From: a virus
Taxonomy: Duplodnaviria; Heunggongvirae; Uroviricota; Caudoviricetes
IMG/VR virus record: IMGVR_UViG_2695420792_000002
Strand: one strand, 5' to 3'
DNA length: 6,025 nucleotides
Below, one piece after another: positions 1-6,025 of the stretch (within the stretch, counting starts at the first letter, position 1; every line of letters starts with the position of its first letter). The notes below the pieces were generated by a model. It was not told the DNA's origin, searched no databases, and was given only the letters and a program-made list of their open reading frames with translations. A program made the position numbers and the translations under genes.

Positions 1-249
1 TTCGGGGGAAAAACGAGTATTTTTAGTCATCCTGTTTACCTCTTTCTCAGGAAGTTTAGTCTCCAGGATTCCCGGGGCGGTTCAGATATCACCACTATCC
101 AGTCGTTACGCCATACCTCCGATCTTGATACCGGAGAGATGTATGTCTTCCTGTGTAAGGTTGAAGCCTGGGCGGTGAATATTGGCTGCCACCTGACTAT
201 TCCGCAGAGCTGCGAGTTCCAGCTGCTCCGCGACAAGCAGGAGGCGTAA
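1..249 (+). CDS. 3' part of a nin-region ORF whose start lies upstream of the window; hypothetical protein in the position of ybcN in DLP12
   Basis: Frame 1 is open from base 1 to TAA at 247-249 (82 sense codons). Its stop overlaps the ninE ATG as TAATG, preceded by GGAGG. The listed minus-strand ORF 36..284 is its antisense shadow. Product identity not recognised from sequence. Confidence 0.5.
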   Translation, partial: FGGKTSIFSHPVYLFLRKFSLQDSRGGSDITTIQSLRHTSDLDTGEMYVFLCKVEAWAVNIGCHLTIPQSCEFQLLRDKQEA

Positions 250-419
250 TGGCTACACCGCTTATTCGTGTCATGAACGGACACATCTACAGAGTATCAA
301 ATCGTCGTAAGCGTAAGCCTGAGCTGAAGCCATCCGAAATACCAACACTGCTCGGATATACCGCTAGCCTGGTTGATAAAAAATGGTTGCGACTGGCAGC
401 AAGGAGGAATCATGGCTGA
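249..419 (+). CDS. ninE: NinE-family small protein (56 aa)
   Basis: ATG at 249 with GGAGG upstream; translation [56 protein letters not shown] matches my recollection of DLP12 NinE. Below the size cutoff of the ORF track. Overlaps ybcO start by 8 nt. Confidence 0.7.
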   Translation: MATPLIRVMNGHIYRVSNRRKRKPELKPSEIPTLLGYTASLVDKKWLRLAARRNHG

Positions 420-702
420 TTTGAGAAAAGCAGCGCGTGGTCGGGAATGCCAGGTAAGAATCCCTGGCGTATGTAATGGCAATTCTGAAACGTCTGTACT
501 GGCACATATCCGGCTGGCTGGATTGTGCGGTACCGGTATCAAACCGCCAGACCTGATTGCCACCATTGCATGTTCTGCCTGCCACGACGAAATCGACCGC
601 CGCACACATTTTGTCGATGCTGCATATGCAAAAGAATGCGCGCTGGAAGGTATGGCGAGAACACAGGTTATCTGGCTGAAAGAGGGGGTTATTAAGGCGT
701 GA
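412..702 (+). CDS. ybcO: YbcO-like DUF1364 protein (96 aa), Cys-rich, putative metal-binding nuclease
   Basis: AAGGAGG at 401-407 then ATG at 412; translation [23 protein letters not shown]...[11 protein letters not shown]... matches recalled DLP12 YbcO. The track start at 373 (TTG) is an upstream extension with no SD. Confidence 0.8.
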
Positions 703-1061
703 ATACCTACAGTATCACATTACCCTGGCCTCCGAGCAATAATCGCTATTACCGCCATAATCGCGGGCGCACGCACGTCAGTGCAGAGGGGCAGGCATAC
801 CGCGATAACGTCGCCCGAATCATTAAAAGCGCAATGCTGGATATCGGCCTGGCTATGCCTGTGAAAATCCGCATTGAGTGCCACATGCCGGATCGCCGTC
901 GCCGTGACCTGGATAATCTGCAAAAAGCCGCTTTTGACGCACTCACTAAAGCAGGTTTCTGGCTGGATGATGCTCAGGTCGTTGATTACCGCGTTGTGAA
1001 GATGCCTGTTACCAAAGGTGGGAGGCTGGAACTGACCATCACCGAAATGGGGAATGAATGA
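699..1061 (+). CDS. rusA: Holliday junction resolvase RusA (crossover junction endodeoxyribonuclease), 120 aa
   Basis: Translation [37 protein letters not shown]... is the RusA family signature. GTG start at 699 overlaps the ybcO stop (GTGA), indicating translational coupling. Confidence 0.9.
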
Positions 1062-1198
1062 TGTTTGAGTTTAATATAGCAGAACTTCTTCGCCACCGCT
1101 GGGGGCGTCTGCGCTTATATCGTTTCCCCGGTTCTGTTTTGACCGATTACCGAATACTGAAGAATTACGCCAAAACCCTGACAGGAGCAGGAGTATGA
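1058..1198 (+). CDS. ylcG: YlcG-like small protein (46 aa)
   Basis: ATG at 1058 overlaps the rusA stop (ATGA). Translation [46 protein letters not shown] matches recalled DLP12 YlcG. Absent from the ORF track because it is short. Confidence 0.6.
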
Positions 1199-1283
1199 AG
1201 TCAGAGATAACAATCAACTAATACTGTTTTATTGATTTTTGCTTGTAATTGGCGTTCTGGTCTGATTTTTGTGGAGTAAGTTG

Positions 1284-1667
1284 ATGCGTGATATTCAGAT
1301 GGTTCTTGAGCGTTGGGGAGCGTGGGCGGCTAATAATCATGAAGATGTGACCTGGTCGTCCATTGCCGCCGGTTTTAAGGGATTAATTCCTTCAAAAGTA
1401 AAATCTCGCCCGCAATGTTGTGACGATGACGCGATGATCATTTGCGGGTGCATGGCCCGTCTGAAAAAGAACAACAGCGATTTGCACGATTTATTAGTAG
1501 ATTATTATGTAGTTGGTATGACATTCATGTCACTGGCAGGTAAGCATTGCTGCTCTGATGGTTATATCGGGAAAAGGTTACAGAAGGCTGAGGGCATAAT
1601 TGAAGGGATGTTAATGGCATTAGATATCCGGTTAGAGATGGATATCGTTGTTAATAACTCTAATTAA
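1284..1667 (+). CDS. quuD: Late-gene antiterminator Q homolog (127 aa), QuuD-like
   Basis: GGAG at 1273-1276 then ATG at 1284; translation [26 protein letters not shown]...[16 protein letters not shown]... matches recalled DLP12 QuuD. The track start at 1269 is a TTG extension. Position immediately upstream of the lysis cassette fits Q. Confidence 0.8.
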
Positions 1668-1684
1668 TACGCCAATTATTTACT

Positions 1685-1718
1685 AAAAGTTATTAAAAAT
1701 GGGGCGTTGAAACGCCCC
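1685..1718 (-). terminator. Candidate intrinsic terminator for minus-strand transcripts (distal end of the porin 3' UTR)
   Basis: Perfect hairpin GGGGCG-TTGAAA-CGCCCC at 1701-1718. On the minus strand it is followed by AUUUUUAAUAACUUUU (complement of 1685-1700). Confidence 0.35.
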
Positions 1719-1745
1719 CAAAAATAAAGGGTAATATATAACAGA
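1707..1745 (+). promoter_or_regulatory. Speculative late promoter (pR'-like) and Q-utilisation region just downstream of Q
   Basis: TTGAAA at 1707-1712 and TAATAT at 1732-1737 (19-bp spacer), about 40-70 bp past the Q stop, the distance at which lambdoid phages place pR'. Weak match, position-based. Confidence 0.2.
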
Positions 1746-1806
1746 AGGTTTGTATAGTTAGAAGCAAGGTTGTGCTTCTAAAGGAAGTGGCTTGAGGGAG
1801 CCACTT

Positions 1807-1847
1807 ATATGTTGGGGAGGCAAAGCCTCCCACAACATATCTTTTAG
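1807..1847 (+). terminator. Candidate intrinsic terminator for plus-strand transcripts (tR'-like); also sits immediately 3' of the porin stop
   Basis: 15-bp stem with one bulge: ATATGTTGGGGAGGC / AAA loop / GCCTCCC(A)CAACATAT at 1807-1840, followed on the plus strand by CTTTTAG. Confidence 0.35.
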
Positions 1848-1855
1848 TAATCAAA

Positions 1856-2938
1856 TTAGAACTGGTAAACCATACCTACAGCAACGATATCATCGGTAGC
1901 AACGCCAGATGCTTTCGTGAAATCGCTCTTATCAATCAGGTTGATTTTGTAGTCAACAAAAGTGGACATATTTTTGTTGAAGTAATAGGTTGCACCTACA
2001 TCAACATATTCAACCAGGTCCTGATCACCCCAAACACCCAAGTCTTTTCCTTTAGAATGCAGGTAAGCAACGGATGGACGCAGGCCGAAGTCGAACTGAT
2101 ATTGTGCAACAGCTTCGAAGTTTTGTGCTTTGTTGGCAATATGGTTATTACCAAAAACAGTCATGTTCTGGGTTTCAGAATAGGTGGTGGCCAGATAGAT
2201 GTTGTTCGCATCATATTTCAGACCAGCTGCCCATACTTCAGCATTTTGACCAGAAGCATTCAGACCGTTGTTACCGTAGATAACCTGATTATTAGTGCGA
2301 TCAGATTTAGCATAGGTTGCACCTACACCGAATCCTTCATACTCATAAGTAGTGGAGAAACCGAAACCATCACCATTAGCTTCAGTTACGTCAGTGCGGT
2401 CATTTTTACCCTGATACTGAGCAGCAAAGTTCAGACCATCAACCAGACCAAAGAAGTCGTTGTTACGATAAGTTGCAACACCAGTGGTGCGACCAGTCAT
2501 GAACACATCTGTTTGAGTCCAAGTGTCACCACCGAATTCTGGCAGGACGTCAGTCCACGCACCGATGTCGTATGCTACACCGTAGTTACGGCCGTAATCG
2601 ATGGAGCCGTAGTCACCGAATTTCAGGCCAGCGAAGGCAAGACGGGTTTTATCTTTGGAGGAACCTTGAGATTCAGCGCGGTTGCCTTTGAATTCATATT
2701 CCCACTGACCGAAACCAGTCAGTTGATCGTTGATTTGGGTTTCACCTTTGAAGCCAAGACGGGCATAAGTAGTATCACCATCATCTGCATCATTAGAGGA
2801 GAAGTAGTGCTTAGCATTAACTTTCCCGTACAGATCCAGCTTGTTACTGTCTTTATTATAAATTTCAGCTGCCTGAGCAGACATCGCCATCAGTACTGAT
2901 GCAGCTACAGCAGAAATTGCCACTGTTAATTTTTTCAT
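1856..2938 (-). CDS. nmpC: OmpC/OmpF/PhoE-family general porin (360 aa), NmpC / Lc-type prophage porin, apparently intact
   Basis: Translation begins [23 protein letters not shown] (signal peptide) then [16 protein letters not shown]..., with the C-terminal ...VGMVYQF typical of 16-strand porins. Matches recalled NmpC N-terminal region. No internal stop or IS interruption across the full-length ORF. Confidence 0.9.
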
Positions 2939-3300
2939 CGTGAGCCCTTTTTTTTGAACTATTATTAAAAAATGATGTCACTGCGCGATAAATATTCATC
3001 TAATCAATGTGATTATTTCAAGATGTAAGTTTTAGTTTCTCATTTAATTTGTGAAGTAGATCTCTATTTTTATCTGAACTTTTTCTATCGAAACCTATTT
3101 ATGGCTCTTATTTGAACAAAAATAAACCTATTAGCTAATTTATATTAATGGCTGTTATTTATGGGGGGTCTATAATTCGATGGTTTAATTTAAATTAACT
3201 AAAAATAACGCCGGAAATTATTTATTGGTTATTTGTTGAGGTTTTCTTATGTATTTGTGGTGGTGTTTTGAACACTCGGTAGCATTCTCATAAATATCAT
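2939..3300 (-). promoter_or_regulatory. AT-rich upstream region of the porin gene (promoter and probable regulator-binding sites)
   Basis: Strongly AT-rich, ORF-free sequence immediately 5' of the porin start codon on the minus strand, with many A/T tracts. Boundaries are approximate. Confidence 0.3.
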
Positions 3301-3526
3301 TCAGTGGTTTACGTACGTAAAAAATTGGTTATGCTGTTAAGAGTGGTTACTTCGTCACACAGCTTAAACCCGCCGTCGAGCTGGTTTTTCCATTTTTTGA
3401 GTCTCGATATTAGCTGATAACTCAATACCTGAGTTATTCACTGACTCCGAGTCTGTTACGTTTCTGCTTTTTTGCGATACGTTGTATTCCCTCAATTTAC
3501 ACCCGCTTTGTCTGCGAGGTGGGGTT

Positions 3527-3742
3527 ATGAAATCCATGGATAAGTTAACAACGGGTGTCGCCTATGGCACCTCAGCAGGTAGTGCCGGTTACTGGTTTTT
3601 ACAGCTGCTCGATAAAGTCACGCCCTCACAGTGGGCAGCAATAGGTGTGCTGGGTAGCCTGGTATTTGGCCTGCTGACGTACCTGACAAACCTTTATTTC
3701 AAGATTAAAGAAGATAAGCGCAAGGCTGCGAGAGGTGAATAA
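3527..3742 (+). CDS. essD: Phage-21-type class II holin (pinholin S21 homolog), 71 aa, with dual-start motif
   Basis: GAGGTGGGG then ATG at 3527; translation [71 protein letters not shown] closely resembles S21. Met1 and Met4 give the antiholin/holin dual start. The track start at 3482 is a TTG extension. Confidence 0.9.
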
Positions 3743-4239
3743 TGCCTCCATCATTACGAAAAGCCGTTGCTGCTGCTATTGGTGGCGGAGCAATTGCTAT
3801 AGCATCAGTGTTAATCACTGGCCCAAGTGGTAACGATGGTCTGGAAGGTGTCAGCTACATACCATACAAAGATATTGTTGGTGTATGGACCGTATGTCAC
3901 GGGCATACAGGAAAAGACATCATGCTCGGTAAAACGTATACCAAAGCAGAATGCAAAGCACTCTTGAATAAAGACCTTGCCACTGTCGCCAGACAAATTA
4001 ACCCATACATCGAAGTCGATATACCGGAAACAACGCGCGGCGCTCTTTACTCATTCGTTTACAACGTGGGTGCTGGCAATTTCAGAACATCGACGCTTCT
4101 TCGCAAAATAAACCAGGGCGATATCAAAGGCGCATGTGATCAGTTACGTCGCTGGACATATGCTGGCGGTAAGCAATGGAAAGGTCTCATGACTCGTCGT
4201 GAGATTGAGCGTGAAATCTGTTTGTGGGGTCAGCAATGA
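3742..4239 (+). CDS. rrrD: SAR endolysin (phage-21 R-type lysozyme, T4-lysozyme-like, GH24), 165 aa
   Basis: ATG overlaps the holin stop (TAATG). N-terminal Gly/Ala-rich weakly hydrophobic segment [20 protein letters not shown] (signal-anchor-release domain), followed by the E...D...T catalytic region ([24 protein letters not shown]). Confidence 0.9.
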
Positions 4240-4697
4240 ACAGAGTAACCGCGATTATCTCCGCTCTGGTTATCTGCATCATCGTCTGCCTGTCATGGGC
4301 TGTTAATCATTACCGTGATAACGCCATTACCTATAAAGCCCAGCGCGACAAAAATGCCAAAGAACTGAAGCTGGCGAACGCGGCAATTACTGACATGCAG
4401 ATGCGTCAGCGTGATGTTGCTGCGCTCGATGCAAAATACACGAAGGAGTTAGCTGATGCGAAAGCTGAAAATGATGCTCTGCGTGATGATGTTGCCGCTG
4501 GTCGTCGTCGGTTGCACATCAAAGCAGTCTGTCAGTCAGTGCGTGAAGCCACCACCGCCTCCGGCGTGGATAATGCAGCCTCCCCCCGACTGGCAGACAC
4601 CGCTGAACAGGATTATTTCACCCTCAGAGAGAGGCTGATCACTATGCAAAAACAACTGGAAGGAACCCAGAAGTATATTAATGAGCAGTGCAGATAG
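4236..4697 (+). CDS. rzpD: Rz inner-membrane spanin (i-spanin), 153 aa
   Basis: ATG at 4236 overlaps the endolysin stop (ATGA). N-terminal transmembrane helix ([20 protein letters not shown]) followed by a charged coiled-coil-like periplasmic domain. The track start at 4224 is an upstream extension. Confidence 0.85.
4456..4638 (+). CDS. rzoD: Rz1 outer-membrane lipoprotein spanin (o-spanin), 60 aa, fully embedded in the +1 frame of Rz
   Basis: AGGAG at 4443-4447 then ATG at 4456; lipobox-like LVVVGC with Cys20; proline-rich mature part ([15 protein letters not shown]). Entirely inside Rz in another frame, the classic Rz/Rz1 architecture. Confidence 0.85.
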
Positions 4698-4728
4698 AGC
4701 TGCCCATATCGATGGGCAACTCATGCAA

Positions 4729-5022
4729 TTATTGTGAGCAATACACACGCGCTTCCAGCGGAGTATAAATGCCTAAAGTAATAAAACCGAGCAATCCATT
4801 TACGAATGTTTGCTGGGTTTCTGTTTTAACAACATTTTCTGCGCCGCCACAAATTTTGGCTGCATCAACAGTTTTCTCCTGTCCAATTCCCGAAACGAAG
4901 AAGTGATGGGTGATGGTTTCCTTTGGTGTTACTGCTGTCGGTTTGTTTCCAACAGTAAACGTCTGTTGAGCACATCCTGTAATAAGCATTGCCAGAGCGG
5001 CAGAAAACAACATTTTTTTCAT
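4729..5022 (-). CDS. bor: Bor lipoprotein (serum-resistance / Iss-family outer-membrane lipoprotein), 97 aa
   Basis: Translation from the ATG at 5022: MKKMLFSAALAMLITGCAQQTFTVGNKPTAV... with lipobox LITGC. Matches recalled lambda Bor. The track start at 5070 is an upstream extension. Confidence 0.85.
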   Translation of the reverse strand: MKKMLFSAALAMLITGCAQQTFTVGNKPTAVTPKETITHHFFVSGIGQEKTVDAAKICGGAENVVKTETQQTFVNGLLGFITLGIYTPLEARVYCSQ

Positions 5023-5222
5023 CTTATTATCCTGCATTGTTAAAAACGGCAGAATCCTATGTGACAACAATTAAACGATAGTTAAATGGATTGATGAAAA
5101 TTAAAACTATATAGGTGTACGCTCAGACTATTGGAGGAAGTTGGGGACACTCAGAATCCTGTGGAATGAAATAAACCGGTCTATCCGTCTATTACCCTTT
5201 TAGCTGCGCTGTATCGTCGCCG

Positions 5223-5287
5223 TATTCCCGCATTAACCATGACCGTAGCCCGACGGGGAATTCCTTCTGCGTGAGTGTGCGGGAATA
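5223..5287. repeat. Perfect 10-bp inverted repeat (TATTCCCGCA / TGCGGGAATA) flanking a 45-bp spacer in ORF-free DNA
   Basis: Read directly: 5223-5232 TATTCCCGCA and 5278-5287 TGCGGGAATA are exact reverse complements. The spacer contains a GAATTC palindrome. Confidence 0.5.
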
Positions 5288-5384
5288 ATCAAAAACGATG
5301 CACACCGGGTTTTACTGTGCTGACAGACGCAGGGTTACCCTCATAGTCGCTTTTCCGGTGCGATGGTGGAAGAAACCGGGATGT

Positions 5385-5579
5385 TCATCCATCATCACTT
5401 TGGATTGATGTATATGCTCTCTTTTCTGACGTTAGTCTCCGACGGCAGGCTTCAATGACCCAGGCTGAGAAATTCCCAGACCCTTTTTGCTCAAGAGCGA
5501 TGTTAATTTGTTCAATCATTTGGTTAGGAAAGCGGATGTTGCGGGTTGTTGTTCTGCGGGTTTTGTTCTTCGTTGACAT
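5385..5579 (-). CDS. ylcI: Small basic DUF3950 / YlcI-like protein (64 aa), function unknown
   Basis: Translation MSTKNKTRRTTTRNIRFPNQMIEQINIALEQKGSGNFSAWVIEACRRRLTSEKRAYTSIQSDDG resembles the small conserved protein encoded next to cos in lambda-like phages (my recollection of YlcI). Start codon preceded by AGG. Transcribed divergently from the terminase. Confidence 0.6.
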   Translation of the reverse strand: MSTKNKTRRTTTRNIRFPNQMIEQINIALEQKGSGNFSAWVIEACRRRLTSEKRAYTSIQSDDG

Positions 5580-5743
5580 GAGGTTGCCCCGTATTCAGTG
5601 TCGCTGATTTGTATTGTCTGAAGTTGTTTTTACGTTAAGTTGATGCAGATCAATTAATACGATACCTGCGTCATAATTGATTATTTGACGTGGTTTGATG
5701 GCGTAGATGCACGTTGTGACATATAGATGATAATTATTATCAT

Positions 5744-5778
5744 TTTGCGGGTCCTTTCCGGCGATCCGACAGGTTACG
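5744..5778. other. cos right-end flank including the probable cosQ region
   Basis: TTTGCGGGTCCTTTCCGGCGATCCGACAGGTTACG immediately 5' of cosN matches my recollection of the lambda genome right end. Confidence 0.6.
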
Positions 5779-5790
5779 GGGCGGCGACCT
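5779..5790. other. cosN, the 12-nt cohesive-end sequence GGGCGGCGACCT (terminase nicking site)
   Basis: Exact lambda cohesive-end sequence GGGCGGCGACCT, flanked by lambda-like left-end sequence (CGCGGGTTTTCGCTATTTATGAAAATTTTCCGG). Confidence 0.85.
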
Positions 5791-5942
5791 CGCGGGTTTT
5801 CGCTATTTATGAAAATTTTCCGGTTTAAGGCGTTTCCGTTCTTCTTCGTCGTAACTTAATGTTTTTATTTAAAATACCCCCTGAAAAGAAAGGAAACGAC
5901 AGGTGCTGAAAACGAGCTTTTGGGCCTCTGTCGTTTCCTTTC
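5791..5942. promoter_or_regulatory. cosB: terminase small-subunit binding sites R3, R2 and R1 with an intervening AT-rich IHF-like site
   Basis: CGTTTCC motifs: R3 at about 5831-5848 (CGTTTCCGTTCTTCTTCG); R2 and R1 form a perfect 15-bp inverted repeat GAAAGGAAACGACAG (5888-5902) / CTGTCGTTTCCTTTC (5928-5942); AT-rich TAACTTAATGTTTTTATTTAAAATA between R3 and R2. Confidence 0.75.
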
Positions 5943-5967
5943 TCTGTTTTTGGCCGTGGAATGAACA

Positions 5968-6025
5968 ATGGAAGTCAACAAAAAGCAGCTGGCTGACATT
6001 TTCGGTGCGAGTATCCGTACCATTC
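5968..6025 (+). CDS. nu1: Terminase small subunit Nu1, N-terminal 19 codons only (continues beyond the window)
   Basis: ATG at 5968; translation MEVNKKQLADIFGASIRTI is identical to the lambda gpNu1 N-terminus as I recall it; located just downstream of cosB. Confidence 0.85.
   Translation, partial: MEVNKKQLADIFGASIRTI

Follow-up and report, generated by a model that had tools for sequence, protein, structure and literature searches.

The nmpC/lc-type porin gene and its place in the qsr′/DLP12/PA-2 phages were already known in the 1980s, and superinfection exclusion by PA-2 lysogens belongs to the older literature. IpeX was published as an RNA of 167 nt of the prophage DLP12, which is made as part of the porin transcript, and the loss of OmpC and OmpF has been attributed to this 3′UTR. 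Since 2006 IpeX has been described as a porin regulator that works without simple base pairing; according to reviews, base pairing is not its mode of action, or at least not the only one.

Here we analyzed a stretch of 6,025 nucleotides of phage DNA (Caudoviricetes; IMG/VR record IMGVR_UViG_2695420792_000002), hereafter called the window, which harbors a porin gene of this kind. As a feature, the gene is already known and in itself offers nothing new, and the exact protein has been deposited in public records of phages and genomes. We conclude that the window probably contains the lysogenic-conversion porin module of DLP12/PA-2-type lambdoid phages. A possibly new point is the complementarity of the IpeX linker to the initiation region of ompC and, in P1/P7-type homologs, to that of ompF. 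The positions of all features are compiled in Table 1.

Table 1. Features of the porin module and of its surroundings in the window
Feature	Position	Strand	Basis and remarks
quuD, Q antiterminator, left border of the module	1284..1667	plus	Phage_antitermQ (E = 9.7e-54) and RefSeq annotation of identical sequence
IpeX sRNA region, 3′UTR of the porin mRNA (166 nt)	1690..1855	minus	three hairpins, unpaired linker, intrinsic terminator
Intrinsic terminator of the porin/IpeX transcript	1701..1718	minus	GGGGCGTTTCAACGCCCC followed by ATTTTT; terminator scan
IpeX linker, predicted seed against the ompC/ompF initiation regions	1720..1759	minus	ACUAUACAAACCUUCUGUUAUAUAUUACCCUUUAUUUUU; unpaired in MFE and centroid folds
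Porin gene, nmpC/lc-type	1856..2938	minus	single unbroken ORF, ATG start, 360 aa, intact
Sigma-E-like motif of the late (essD) promoter	2956..2982	plus	GAACTA-N16-TCACT, read from the sequence; inferred start at about 2987
Candidate porin promoter	2992..3021	minus	TTGAAA-N18-GAATAT, read from the sequence; putative
Proximal CRP site	3047..3067	minus	misc_binding in the PA-2 record J02580; exact match in the window
Distal CRP site	3342..3362	minus	misc_binding in the PA-2 record J02580; exact match in the window
essD, P21-type holin, right border of the module	3527..3742	plus	Phage_holin_2_1 (E = 3.5e-35) and annotation
bor/iss homolog	4729-5022

The porin gene and its relatives

The porin precursor consists of a signal peptide of 23 aa and a mature part of 337 aa. 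It matched Porin_1 (Pfam PF00267) in full length (1-337/337, E = 3e-152), scoring 507.3 bits where the gathering score is 23.7, and PHROG 410 at 1-360/360 (E = 1.6e-224). Since the solved porins OmpK37, OmpC, PhoE and OmpF could be aligned with it end to end (E values of about 1e-120 to 1e-136), we infer that the protein is a classical 16-strand trimeric general porin, for which pore activity is predicted. The first 23 residues agree completely with the sig_peptide in the annotation of PA-2 lc, and the mature protein begins with AEIYNKD, which fits the AE(I/V)YNKD N-terminus of general porins. Alignment with OmpC, OmpF, PhoE and OmpN disclosed the PEFGGD motif of loop 3 and a C-terminal YQF, ending with Phe. 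The initial annotation, which had described a full-length ORF for a complete OmpC-family porin with signal peptide and C-terminal Phe, was thus affirmed. Neither a frameshift nor a truncation was detected by alignment with Lc, NmpC, P7 NmpC, OmpC, OmpF, PhoE and OmpN, and the shortfall of five residues compared to Lc and NmpC (365 aa) is caused by in-frame indels in the loops L4 and L5.

The nearest relatives of the window porin are porins of phages and prophages, as had been proposed with its assignment to the NmpC/Lc type. The porin of phage PhiR70_1 is 100% identical, followed by those of ev099 and ev243 (99.4%) and of Perceval (94.7%). PA-2 Lc exhibits 90.7% (tblastn) or 91.9% (global alignment) identity, K-12 NmpC rebuilt without IS5 91.9%, P7 NmpC 84.4% and Salmonella OmpD about 80%, whereas the K-12 core porins reach only 68.0% (OmpN), 64.8% (OmpC and PhoE) and 62.5% (OmpF). 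With an identity of at least about 90% to Lc or NmpC, and with lower values for all core porins, the protein falls into the NmpC/Lc clade.

In RefSeq the window porin is labelled by PGAP as 'ompC: porin OmpC'. It indeed passed the cut-off of the NCBIfam model NF007841 'porin OmpC' (514.7 against 484 bits), which is a subfamily model and not an equivalog, while the NCBIfam equivalog models of PhoE and OmpF were not passed. In view of the low identity to OmpC, of the subfamily level of the matching model and of the true ompC locus, which lies elsewhere (micF-ompC-rcsD), we rejected the name OmpC. The name OmpD, used in several phage records, was rejected as well. OmpD of Salmonella enterica and the orthologs from Citrobacter have a similar length (358-362 aa) and about 78-81% identity, but their genes reside in a fixed EamA-porin-GFA-MFS locus of the chromosome, encode a different signal peptide and possess a short 3′UTR made up of the terminator only. 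OmpD is a sister clade of the window porin and not its ortholog. In the outer membrane of many clinical E. coli, prophage porins of the NmpC/Lc kind are abundant, and their routine naming as 'OmpC' in RefSeq can mislead studies on permeability, phage receptors and vaccines.

Altogether 2501 out of 5426 complete E. coli genomes (about 46%) contained at least 80% of the locus. This count refers to coverage, which alone is no proof that the ORF is intact. Intact copies are the rule, and the IS5-split copy of K-12 is the less typical one. In DLP12 of K-12 the region corresponding to window 85 to 5076 is collinear with an identity of 94.3% once IS5 is removed. As stated in the initial annotation, nmpC of K-12 (b0553) is interrupted near its 3′-end. 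IS5B, which is absent from the window, is inserted after codon 346 (fragment 1 comprises 1040 nt), and the interrupted reading frame stops after 355 codons. DLP12 also differs by the genes ybcV and ybcW downstream of bor, both of which are missing from the window.

Within the porin gene, the first approximately 400 nt are 100% identical to nmpC of K-12 at the DNA level, while beyond this point the identity amounts to 63-88% and K-12 NmpC bears another set of loops; the same 3′UTR (IpeX) follows in both. With respect to the lysis genes, the lc gene of PA-2 (J02580) is located and oriented like the window gene. The first approximately 180 residues of the two proteins are identical except for R99H and V154F, the two annotated CRP sites show no difference, and the IpeX sequences downstream of the genes are nearly identical. 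The two proteins differ in L4 (3-residue deletion), in L5 (indel and substitutions), in L6 and in several C-terminal residues, and the 3′ approximately 600 nt of lc share only 63-88% DNA identity with the window gene. In L4-L6 the window porin is more like the Citrobacter sequence P0053 than like Lc. To judge from these alignments, the window porin gene is a recombinant with surface loops L4-L6 of a different type. The allele differences gather in these loops via recombination, as would be expected under selection by phages, colicins or antibodies.

Genomic position and transcription signals

The porin gene is flanked by Q and the holin gene essD, which is in line with the initial annotation, and the lysozyme and Rz genes follow essD. 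For the Phage_antitermQ feature on the plus strand, the start is given as 1269 or 1284 and the end as 1667. The gene had also been placed inside the late region, which holds true for its position; it is, however, located on the opposite strand to Q and the lysis genes and diverges from the late promoter. The order Q-porin-holin with the porin gene on the opposite strand was also found in K-12 DLP12, PA-2, PhiR70_1 and L019/L023, and about 36 phage records show the same arrangement as the window. Homology with phages lacking the porin ends at position 1643 of the window and resumes at 3511. In phage 1H12, a gene for the lipocalin Blc occupies the porin slot after a Q region of 93.5% identity. 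As in other morons, the porin gene is therefore absent from or replaced in homologous phages. These breaks and the replacement in 1H12, together with its own terminator and the conserved annotated CRP sites, suggest that it is a self-contained unit outside the late transcript. The terminator has no T-run on the plus strand and hence is one-directional. A scan of the window for tRNA genes yielded none. In one genome, which contains a sequence identical to the window, the element is a defective prophage.

A late promoter in front of essD has been reported in the literature, and control by RpoE and Q is cited for it. For the lysis promoter of DLP12, a primer at -121 has been described. It maps to positions 2866-2885 and the site of the reverse primer to about 3632-3650, resulting in an amplicon that fits -121..+650. 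The reported promoter is therefore located at about position 2987 of the window, beside the start codon of the porin gene, and points away from it, so that late transcription should not cross the porin gene. Comparison with 1H12 was uninformative on a Q-dependent promoter, as there is no homology past the Q gene. A tR′-like terminator between the late promoter and essD was considered and rejected: the region 3340-3420 did not fold better than its shuffles (z = 0.31) and the scan revealed no terminator on the plus strand.

On the porin side, the consensus scan scored no sigma-70 promoter within 2939-3526, including the candidate TTGAAA-N18-GAATAT. From this candidate, a transcription start near 2993 on the minus strand is predicted, and the proximal CRP site would be centered at about -72.5. 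In a weaker reading, the porin promoter and the sigma-E/Q late promoter may overlap back to back at about 2955-3035. Provided that they do so, firing of the late genes and expression of porin and IpeX would exclude each other.

The IpeX 3′UTR and its predicted pairing with host porin mRNAs

Over about 170 nt, only a few substitutions distinguish the 3′UTR of the window from the sequences downstream of K-12 nmpC and PA-2 lc. Its assignment to IpeX is based on this identity and not on an Rfam family model; a scan of the whole window with Rfam 15 (E up to 1) gave two chance miRNA-like matches, none of which was located at the porin 3′UTR. The region has a minimum free energy of -58.5 kcal/mol (z = -8.5 versus shuffles). 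Comparison with eight divergent homologs disclosed structural covariation, as 13 of the 28 consensus pairs keep pairing through two-sided changes, and the terminator stem covaries too. An ORF of 53 aa (1693-1854, minus strand) within the 3′UTR was dismissed as non-coding since it covers the IpeX hairpins and the homologs keep the structure, not the frame.

Multi-hairpin 3′UTRs of this type were found in porin genes of lambdoid and P1/P7-type phages. Both chromosomal ompD genes examined (Salmonella, Citrobacter) lack it, which suggests that the element was acquired by the phage lineage. P7 NmpC has a similar signal peptide but belongs to another phage family, in which the gene is neighbored by ssb and lyz, and its loop L4 is longer. 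In P7 and the P1-like plasmid prophages, the layout of hairpins, linker and terminator is the same as in the window, with compensatory changes. The linkers differ in that the P1/P7-type is almost continuously antisense to the initiation region of ompF, whereas the window linker is mainly so to that of ompC.

Duplexes of full-length IpeX with targets of 120-150 nt were uninformative because intramolecular structure is ignored. They were replaced by duplexes of the linker only, by cofolding and by a genomic background of about 3000 windows. The linker and positions -32..-6 of ompC are predicted to form a duplex of -26.4 kcal/mol, a value reached by none of 1000 shuffles and none of 2980 genomic windows. 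It comprises a 15-bp block over the Shine-Dalgarno (SD) sequence and a 9-bp block further upstream, and it persisted as an intermolecular duplex when full-length IpeX was cofolded with the target. The segment predicted to pair with ompC is UCUGUUAUAU, with UGUUAU lying within the linker, and the ompC positions that would face it are -21..-7 or -21..-12. For P1/P7-type linkers and the ompF initiation region, values of -31 to -36.7 kcal/mol were obtained (0/500 shuffles), while the lambdoid-type IpeX paired only marginally with ompF, being matched by 57-67 per 1000 shuffles and 1.1% of the genomic windows. With the initiation regions of ompA, phoE, ompN and of its own porin, the linker performed no better than shuffles.

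On balance, these predictions tip slightly towards IpeX being an ordinary antisense 3′UTR sRNA, whose linker would occlude the SD sequence of ompC. In phages of the P1/P7 type the target would be the SD sequence of ompF, the lineages having tuned the seed to different host porins. The phage porin would itself escape IpeX because its own initiation region contains no complementary sequence. Should the pairing prove true, the 20-year-old claim of a novel mechanism would be settled, and it would be explained how a single phage transcript can add a porin and also remove those of the host. The seed and its defined target nucleotides provide a concrete and cheaply testable prediction for the silencing of ompC and ompF.

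Proposed function of the module and comparison with known systems

According to the reading as a conversion module, leftward transcription of the intact nmpC/lc allele would start at a promoter of its own, which carries the CRP sites annotated in PA-2 and lies in the AT-rich spacer separating porin and holin, and it would stop at the terminator of the module shortly before the end of Q is reached. Via its signal peptide of 23 residues the porin would be exported as a general porin, while the last 166 nt of the mRNA, i.e., IpeX, would diminish the production of host OmpC and OmpF, perhaps by antisense pairing of the linker with the SD regions of ompC and ompF. In this way the lysogen would swap host porins for the phage porin. 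As a consequence, the OmpC/OmpF receptors for superinfecting phages and colicins would be lost and the permeability of the outer membrane would be altered. The expression of such porins in lysogens and the repression of OmpC/OmpF by IpeX are taken from literature on related alleles. The initial annotation had ascribed the exclusion of porin-using phages to the phage-borne porin. This has to be modified, as exclusion would not be a property of the porin alone; the idea itself is sustained by the presence of IpeX, which is credited in the literature with the loss of OmpC and OmpF.

Alternatively, the porin might mainly be a channel for nutrients or under stress (uptake at high cAMP-CRP, heat resistance, host adaptation), phage exclusion being incidental or absent. 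We regard this as unlikely, even though the two conserved CRP sites upstream of the gene agree with it, as do the heat resistance of strain AW1.7 caused by NmpC overexpression, the reported induction of NmpC at body temperature and the high frequency of the locus among both commensal and pathogenic E. coli. A channel function is compatible with the conversion module and not exclusive of it. Moreover, the phage-specific 3′UTR directed against ompC and ompF indicates selection for the removal of host porins, not merely for the gain of a channel, and the concentration of the allele differences in L4-L6 by recombination resembles the outcome of phage, colicin or antibody selection.

It is rather improbable that the gene is intact but silent in its host, e.g., by H-NS-type silencing of the upstream region, and causes no phenotype in the lysogen under ordinary conditions. 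The GC content of 0.27-0.30 across 2851-3300, the result of the sigma-70 scan and the defective prophage mentioned above would fit such silencing, and an intact gene need not be expressed, since nmpC of E. coli B is called 'quiescent' in the title of a paper. Close alleles are, however, expressed. NmpC of the LF82 prophage Perceval was expressed 10-fold above the local background, 89% of UPEC isolates had NmpC in their outer-membrane proteomes, and in CFT073 nmpC is favored at 37 °C and ompC at 23 °C, with a strong induction of nmpC at 37 °C on the RNA and protein level. Furthermore, ORF, signal peptide, annotated CRP sites, terminator and 3′UTR are unbroken across many phages, which argues for selection on function. 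That an ortholog of OmpC or OmpD, as a core porin of the host, by chance resides beside phage genes has next to no probability and, in spite of the PGAP name and the NF007841 score, is already refuted by context and identity, since besides the distance to OmpC and OmpD, their different loci and the IpeX 3′UTR, the identical protein is encoded by phage PhiR70_1, for which E. coli C is recorded as host.

The proposed porin module resembles the lambda morons bor and lom in probably being a small autonomous unit expressed from the prophage and in encoding an outer-membrane protein on the opposite strand amid late genes; a bor/iss homolog is located in the same window. The porin belongs to another protein family, and its module additionally contains a trans-acting RNA. 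For this RNA the closest counterparts are MicF and MicC. IpeX is predicted to share with them an unpaired segment that pairs with the 5′UTR/SD region of a major porin mRNA, though for IpeX the pairing is a prediction and reviews do not class it as a base-pairing sRNA. Common to all three is the linkage of the sRNA gene to another porin gene (ompC-micF, ompN-micC). In contrast to MicF and MicC, which are encoded by divergent genes, IpeX is phage-borne and constitutes the 3′UTR of the porin mRNA itself.

Intactness of the porin gene and its surroundings

The porin gene is uninterrupted in the ORF list and encodes 360 amino acids. Its product matched the Porin_1 profile completely in the Pfam scan (1-337/337, E=3e-152), as well as the phage protein family PHROG 410 from end to end (1-360/360). 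Residues 1-23 are identical to the signal peptide annotated for lc of phage PA-2, residues 24-360 align with many solved porins, and the motifs AEIYNKD (mature N-terminus), PEFGGD (loop 3) and YQF (C-terminus) were found. The initial annotation, which had described a complete, full-length OmpC-family porin with signal peptide and C-terminal Phe between Q and the holin, was thus confirmed as real and correctly read, and neither a frameshift nor a truncation was detected in the end-to-end alignment. It was also right that the K-12 homolog is split by IS5: IS5B resides after codon 346, and the annotated record of phage 434 exhibits the same insertion.

The map of the window draws on the ORF list, on Pfam scans and on RefSeq features of a genome matching it at 100% identity from 85 to 6025. 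The genes belong to a lambdoid phage of the DLP12/PA-2 type and make up its late region. K-12 DLP12 is collinear with 85-5076 (94.3% identity with IS5 removed).

Features of the window and their coordinates
Feature	Position	Strand or remark
ybcN, partial	left end	
ninE	249-419	
ybcO	412-702	
rusA	699-1061	
ylcG	1058-1198	
quuD, Q antiterminator	1284-1667	
IpeX	1690-1855	minus
Intrinsic terminator	1718-1701	minus
IpeX linker	1759-1720	minus
IpeX hairpin 2	1791-1812	minus
Porin gene	1856-2938	minus, opposite to neighbours
CAGUGGC, porin codons 5-7	2919-2925	minus
GAACTA-N16-TCACT	2956-2982	
Candidate porin promoter	3021-2992	minus
Proximal CRP site	3047-3067	exact match to PA-2 GenBank annotation
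Distal CRP site	3342-3362	exact match to PA-2 GenBank annotation
Lysis cassette	3527-4697	plus
essD, P21-type holin	3527-3742	
rrrD, lysozyme	3742-4239	
rzpD	4236-4697	
rzoD	4456-4638	embedded in rzpD
bor/iss lipoprotein gene	4729-5022	minus
ylcI	5385-5579	minus
cosN	5779-5790	
Inverted repeat	within 5887-5943	
nohD start	near 5968	

The lysis genes form a cassette of the phage-21 type: a holin with a dual start (MKSMDK...), an endolysin whose N-terminal segment is hydrophobic and SAR-like, and Rz, in which an ORF for the Rz1 lipoprotein is embedded. A second opposite-strand outer-membrane moron encodes the Bor/Iss lipoprotein (97 aa, lipobox LITGC), named "increased serum survival lipoprotein Iss" in RefSeq. 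The window spans the ends of the packaged genome, since it contains lambda cosN (GGGCGGCGACCT) and base 5778 is where the records of phages ev243 and 2G7b stop. Between cosN and the nohD start there is a 26-nt inverted repeat (85% complementary). Mosaic joints were seen at 1-84 and 5077-5367. The first stretch, inside ybcN, differs from its counterpart in all genomes that reach 100% identity over 85-6025, while the second is not collinear with K-12, whose ybcV and ybcW are missing in the window. In NZ_CP148385.1 the identical sequence belongs to a DLP12-like defective prophage (locus 3300-26500) harboring emrE, ybcK, ybcL and ybcM as well as a truncated integrase and terminase and tail genes. 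This prophage is flanked by ybhC and ybhB-bioA, at the attachment site of lambda; K-12 DLP12 is integrated elsewhere, at argU.

Transcription and exchange of the porin block

The strand of the porin gene, absent from the initial annotation, is directed away from the lysis genes. According to Pasqua et al., the lysis operon is regulated by Q, RpoE and Hha. The positions of their primers (forward on 2866-2885, reverse site about 3632-3650) place the start of this operon near 2987 on the plus strand. At this inferred start the motif GAACTA-N16-TCACT is located. The sigma-E consensus is GGAACTT-N16-TCnnA, which the motif appears to match. From the start and the motif it follows that the late promoter adjoins the first codon of the porin gene and directs transcription away from this gene. 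The gene is thereby placed between Q and the target promoter of Q, so that the earlier assignment to the late region holds for its location but not for the late transcript, outside of which it lies.

The spacer between porin and holin is very AT-rich (GC 0.27-0.30). Judged from its sequence, TTGAAA-N18-GAATAT may serve as the porin promoter, which would put the proximal CRP site near -72.5; the consensus promoter scan did not report this element.

Porin-less phages with the same holin share sequence from 3511 onward only, and phages with a similar Q share it up to 1643 only. In phage 1H12 (NC_049947.1) the same slot, preceded by a 93.5% identical Q region, contains the lipocalin gene blc on the opposite strand (3050-3574). 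Because of these breaks in homology and the Blc gene in the 1H12 slot, block 1644-3510 behaves like a module that can be exchanged, and it would qualify as a moron as defined by Hendrix. The slot after Q seems to be a preferred site for outer-membrane cargo genes.

The 3′UTR IpeX and its predicted targets

The 166 nt after the porin stop show few base differences from the 3′ regions of K-12 nmpC and PA-2 lc and can, on this similarity, be assigned to the sRNA IpeX as part of the feature; an Rfam search gave no match at this position. Three hairpins are followed by an unpaired AU-rich stretch (the linker) and an intrinsic terminator with a T-run on the porin strand only. The fold reached -58.5 kcal/mol (z=-8.5 versus shuffles). 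We compared the window with seven other porin genes, from K-12, P7, a P1-like plasmid prophage, the E. fergusonii chromosome, two further lambdoid prophages (porins of 364 and 365 aa) and a transposase-flanked copy. Hairpin 1, hairpin 2, linker and terminator were present in all homologs. Hairpin 3, found in most of them and missing from one (L021), aligned poorly and was kept out of the consensus structure, 13 of whose 28 pairs are retained through two-sided changes in at least one sequence. This covariation, drawn from only eight sequences of roughly four lineages, is supportive, though not conclusive, of a conserved structure. In chromosomal ompD of Salmonella and Citrobacter the stop codon is followed by a terminator alone; within the set of genes examined, the structured tail is specific to phage-borne genes.

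The E. fergusonii locus (CP058057.1, 869-3800) encodes an nmpC-like porin of 370 aa with 86% identity, and its 3′UTR resembles IpeX. The porin gene is accompanied by a second porin gene (351 aa) and a TrkH-family gene, and no phage genes were found within 2.5 kb. This copy may have been domesticated or may be a remnant.

Both the MFE and the centroid fold leave the linker unpaired, and its core UGUUAU...CC.UUU is kept in nearly all homologs. In block 1, 5′-AACCUUCUGUUAUAU-3′ of the linker faces 5′-AUAUAACAGAGGGUU-3′ of K-12 ompC (-21 to -7) with 15 contiguous pairs, one of them G-U, spanning the GAGGG Shine-Dalgarno sequence. In block 2, 5′-CCCUUUAUU-3′ faces 5′-AAAUAAAGG-3′ (-31 to -23). The ompC duplex of the lambdoid-type linker (-26.4 kcal/mol) was equalled by 0 of 1000 dinucleotide shuffles (mean -13.5, sd 2.9) and 0 of 2980 unrelated 80-nt genomic windows, and it was retained when full-length IpeX was cofolded with the target (ddG -22 kcal/mol). 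For ompF the same linker gave -18.6 kcal/mol, a value reached by 57-67 per 1000 shuffles and 1.1% of genomic windows. The P7 and P1-like linkers, which are almost continuously antisense to ompF from -14 to +8, gave -31.0 and -36.7 kcal/mol (0/500 controls). Values for ompA, phoE, ompN and the porin's own mRNA (-8.6 to -14.1 kcal/mol) were no better than those of shuffles. Even in the two most divergent homologs the same ompC segment is complementary, partly via different bases. As a separate observation, the loop CCCUCA of hairpin 2 shows no change across the eight divergent homologs, and its stem covaries. The loop complements the GAGGG Shine-Dalgarno sequences of ompC and ompF, but the linker pairing model gives it no part.

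A 2006 abstract on IpeX reportedly stated that OmpC and OmpF are repressed and OmpA is not, the OmpC effect, unlike the OmpF effect, being Hfq-independent. The long ompC duplex and the imperfect ompF duplex fit this pattern. Action of IpeX by linker pairing is put forward as a prediction, not as a discovery, and it conflicts with published descriptions, of which one denies action through base pairing and another says "not only" through complementarity.

OmpC serves as receptor for PA-2, and in PA-2 lysogens OmpC and OmpF are reportedly replaced by "protein 2" (Lc), the classical exclusion phenotype. The best-supported reading is that porin and IpeX would form a two-part conversion module: the phage porin would be added, and the mRNA that encodes it would remove host porins through its tail. 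The main rival explanation, that the window copy is silent in its host, we consider unlikely. As to close alleles, 89% of UPEC isolates had NmpC in their outer-membrane proteome, in CFT073 nmpC genes were strongly favoured at 37 °C and ompC at 23 °C, and heat resistance has been linked to NmpC overexpression. Regarding control of the porin mRNA, CAGUGGC lies at codons 5-7, and the motif GCAGUGGC of these codons recurs in the ompC and ompF leaders. We take CAGUGGC to be complementary to the 5′ seed of RybB, a sigma-E-dependent sRNA. One paper reported nmpC mRNA as a RybB target.

Allele, prevalence and relatives of the porin

The porin is closest to phage and prophage porins, with identities of up to 100% (PhiR70_1), 99.4% (ev099 and ev243) and 94.7% (a group including Perceval). 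Global identity was 91.9% to both PA-2 Lc and K-12 NmpC rebuilt without IS5, and 84.4% to P7 NmpC, versus 68.0% to OmpN, 64.8% each to OmpC and PhoE, and 62.5% to OmpF. Along with the intact frame, these identities decide both refuting checks of the initial annotation in its favour. In a large protein search the porin was assigned to a cluster of 2741 sequences at the 90% level, the representative of which (360 aa) is 98% identical.

Residues 1 to about 180 match Lc and NmpC almost exactly, the differences being R99H and V154F in Lc and G149Q and T151A in K-12 NmpC. The others reside in three indel-rich segments and at scattered C-terminal positions. These segments are the sites of length variation across all porins in the family alignment, and we take them to be the external loops L4, L5 and L6 of the OmpF/OmpC structures. 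At the DNA level, nt 1 to about 400 are 100% identical to K-12 nmpC, beyond which identity drops to 63-88%, indicating a recombination joint within the gene. The loop sequences are closer to a Citrobacter OmpD-type porin (P0053) than to Lc. By this comparison, at least two loop sets circulate on otherwise alike phage porin genes, as would be expected if exposed loops were selected by phages, colicins or antibodies.

Of 5426 complete E. coli genomes, 3547 contained the porin-plus-UTR segment and 2501 had at least 80% of it at one site; 34 records were at least 99% identical. The whole window was covered to at least 80% in 1387 genomes. The nmpC/lc porin is textbook material, very common and already known. 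Added here are the strand and promoter geometry, the recombinant allele, the IpeX 3′UTR as part of the feature, conserved with covariation and on phage-borne genes only among those examined, and a specific, testable base-pairing model for IpeX.

RefSeq/PGAP names the gene "ompC: porin OmpC" because the subfamily model NF007841 was the only one past its cut-off, and many E. coli genomes therefore appear with two or more "ompC" genes. An ompC ortholog was ruled out by the low identity and the different locus. OmpD, the name used in several phage records, is no ortholog either (about 80% identity, different locus): Salmonella OmpD and its Citrobacter relatives are about 78-81% identical to the window porin and, unlike it, reside in the conserved chromosomal locus EamA-porin-GFA-MFS.
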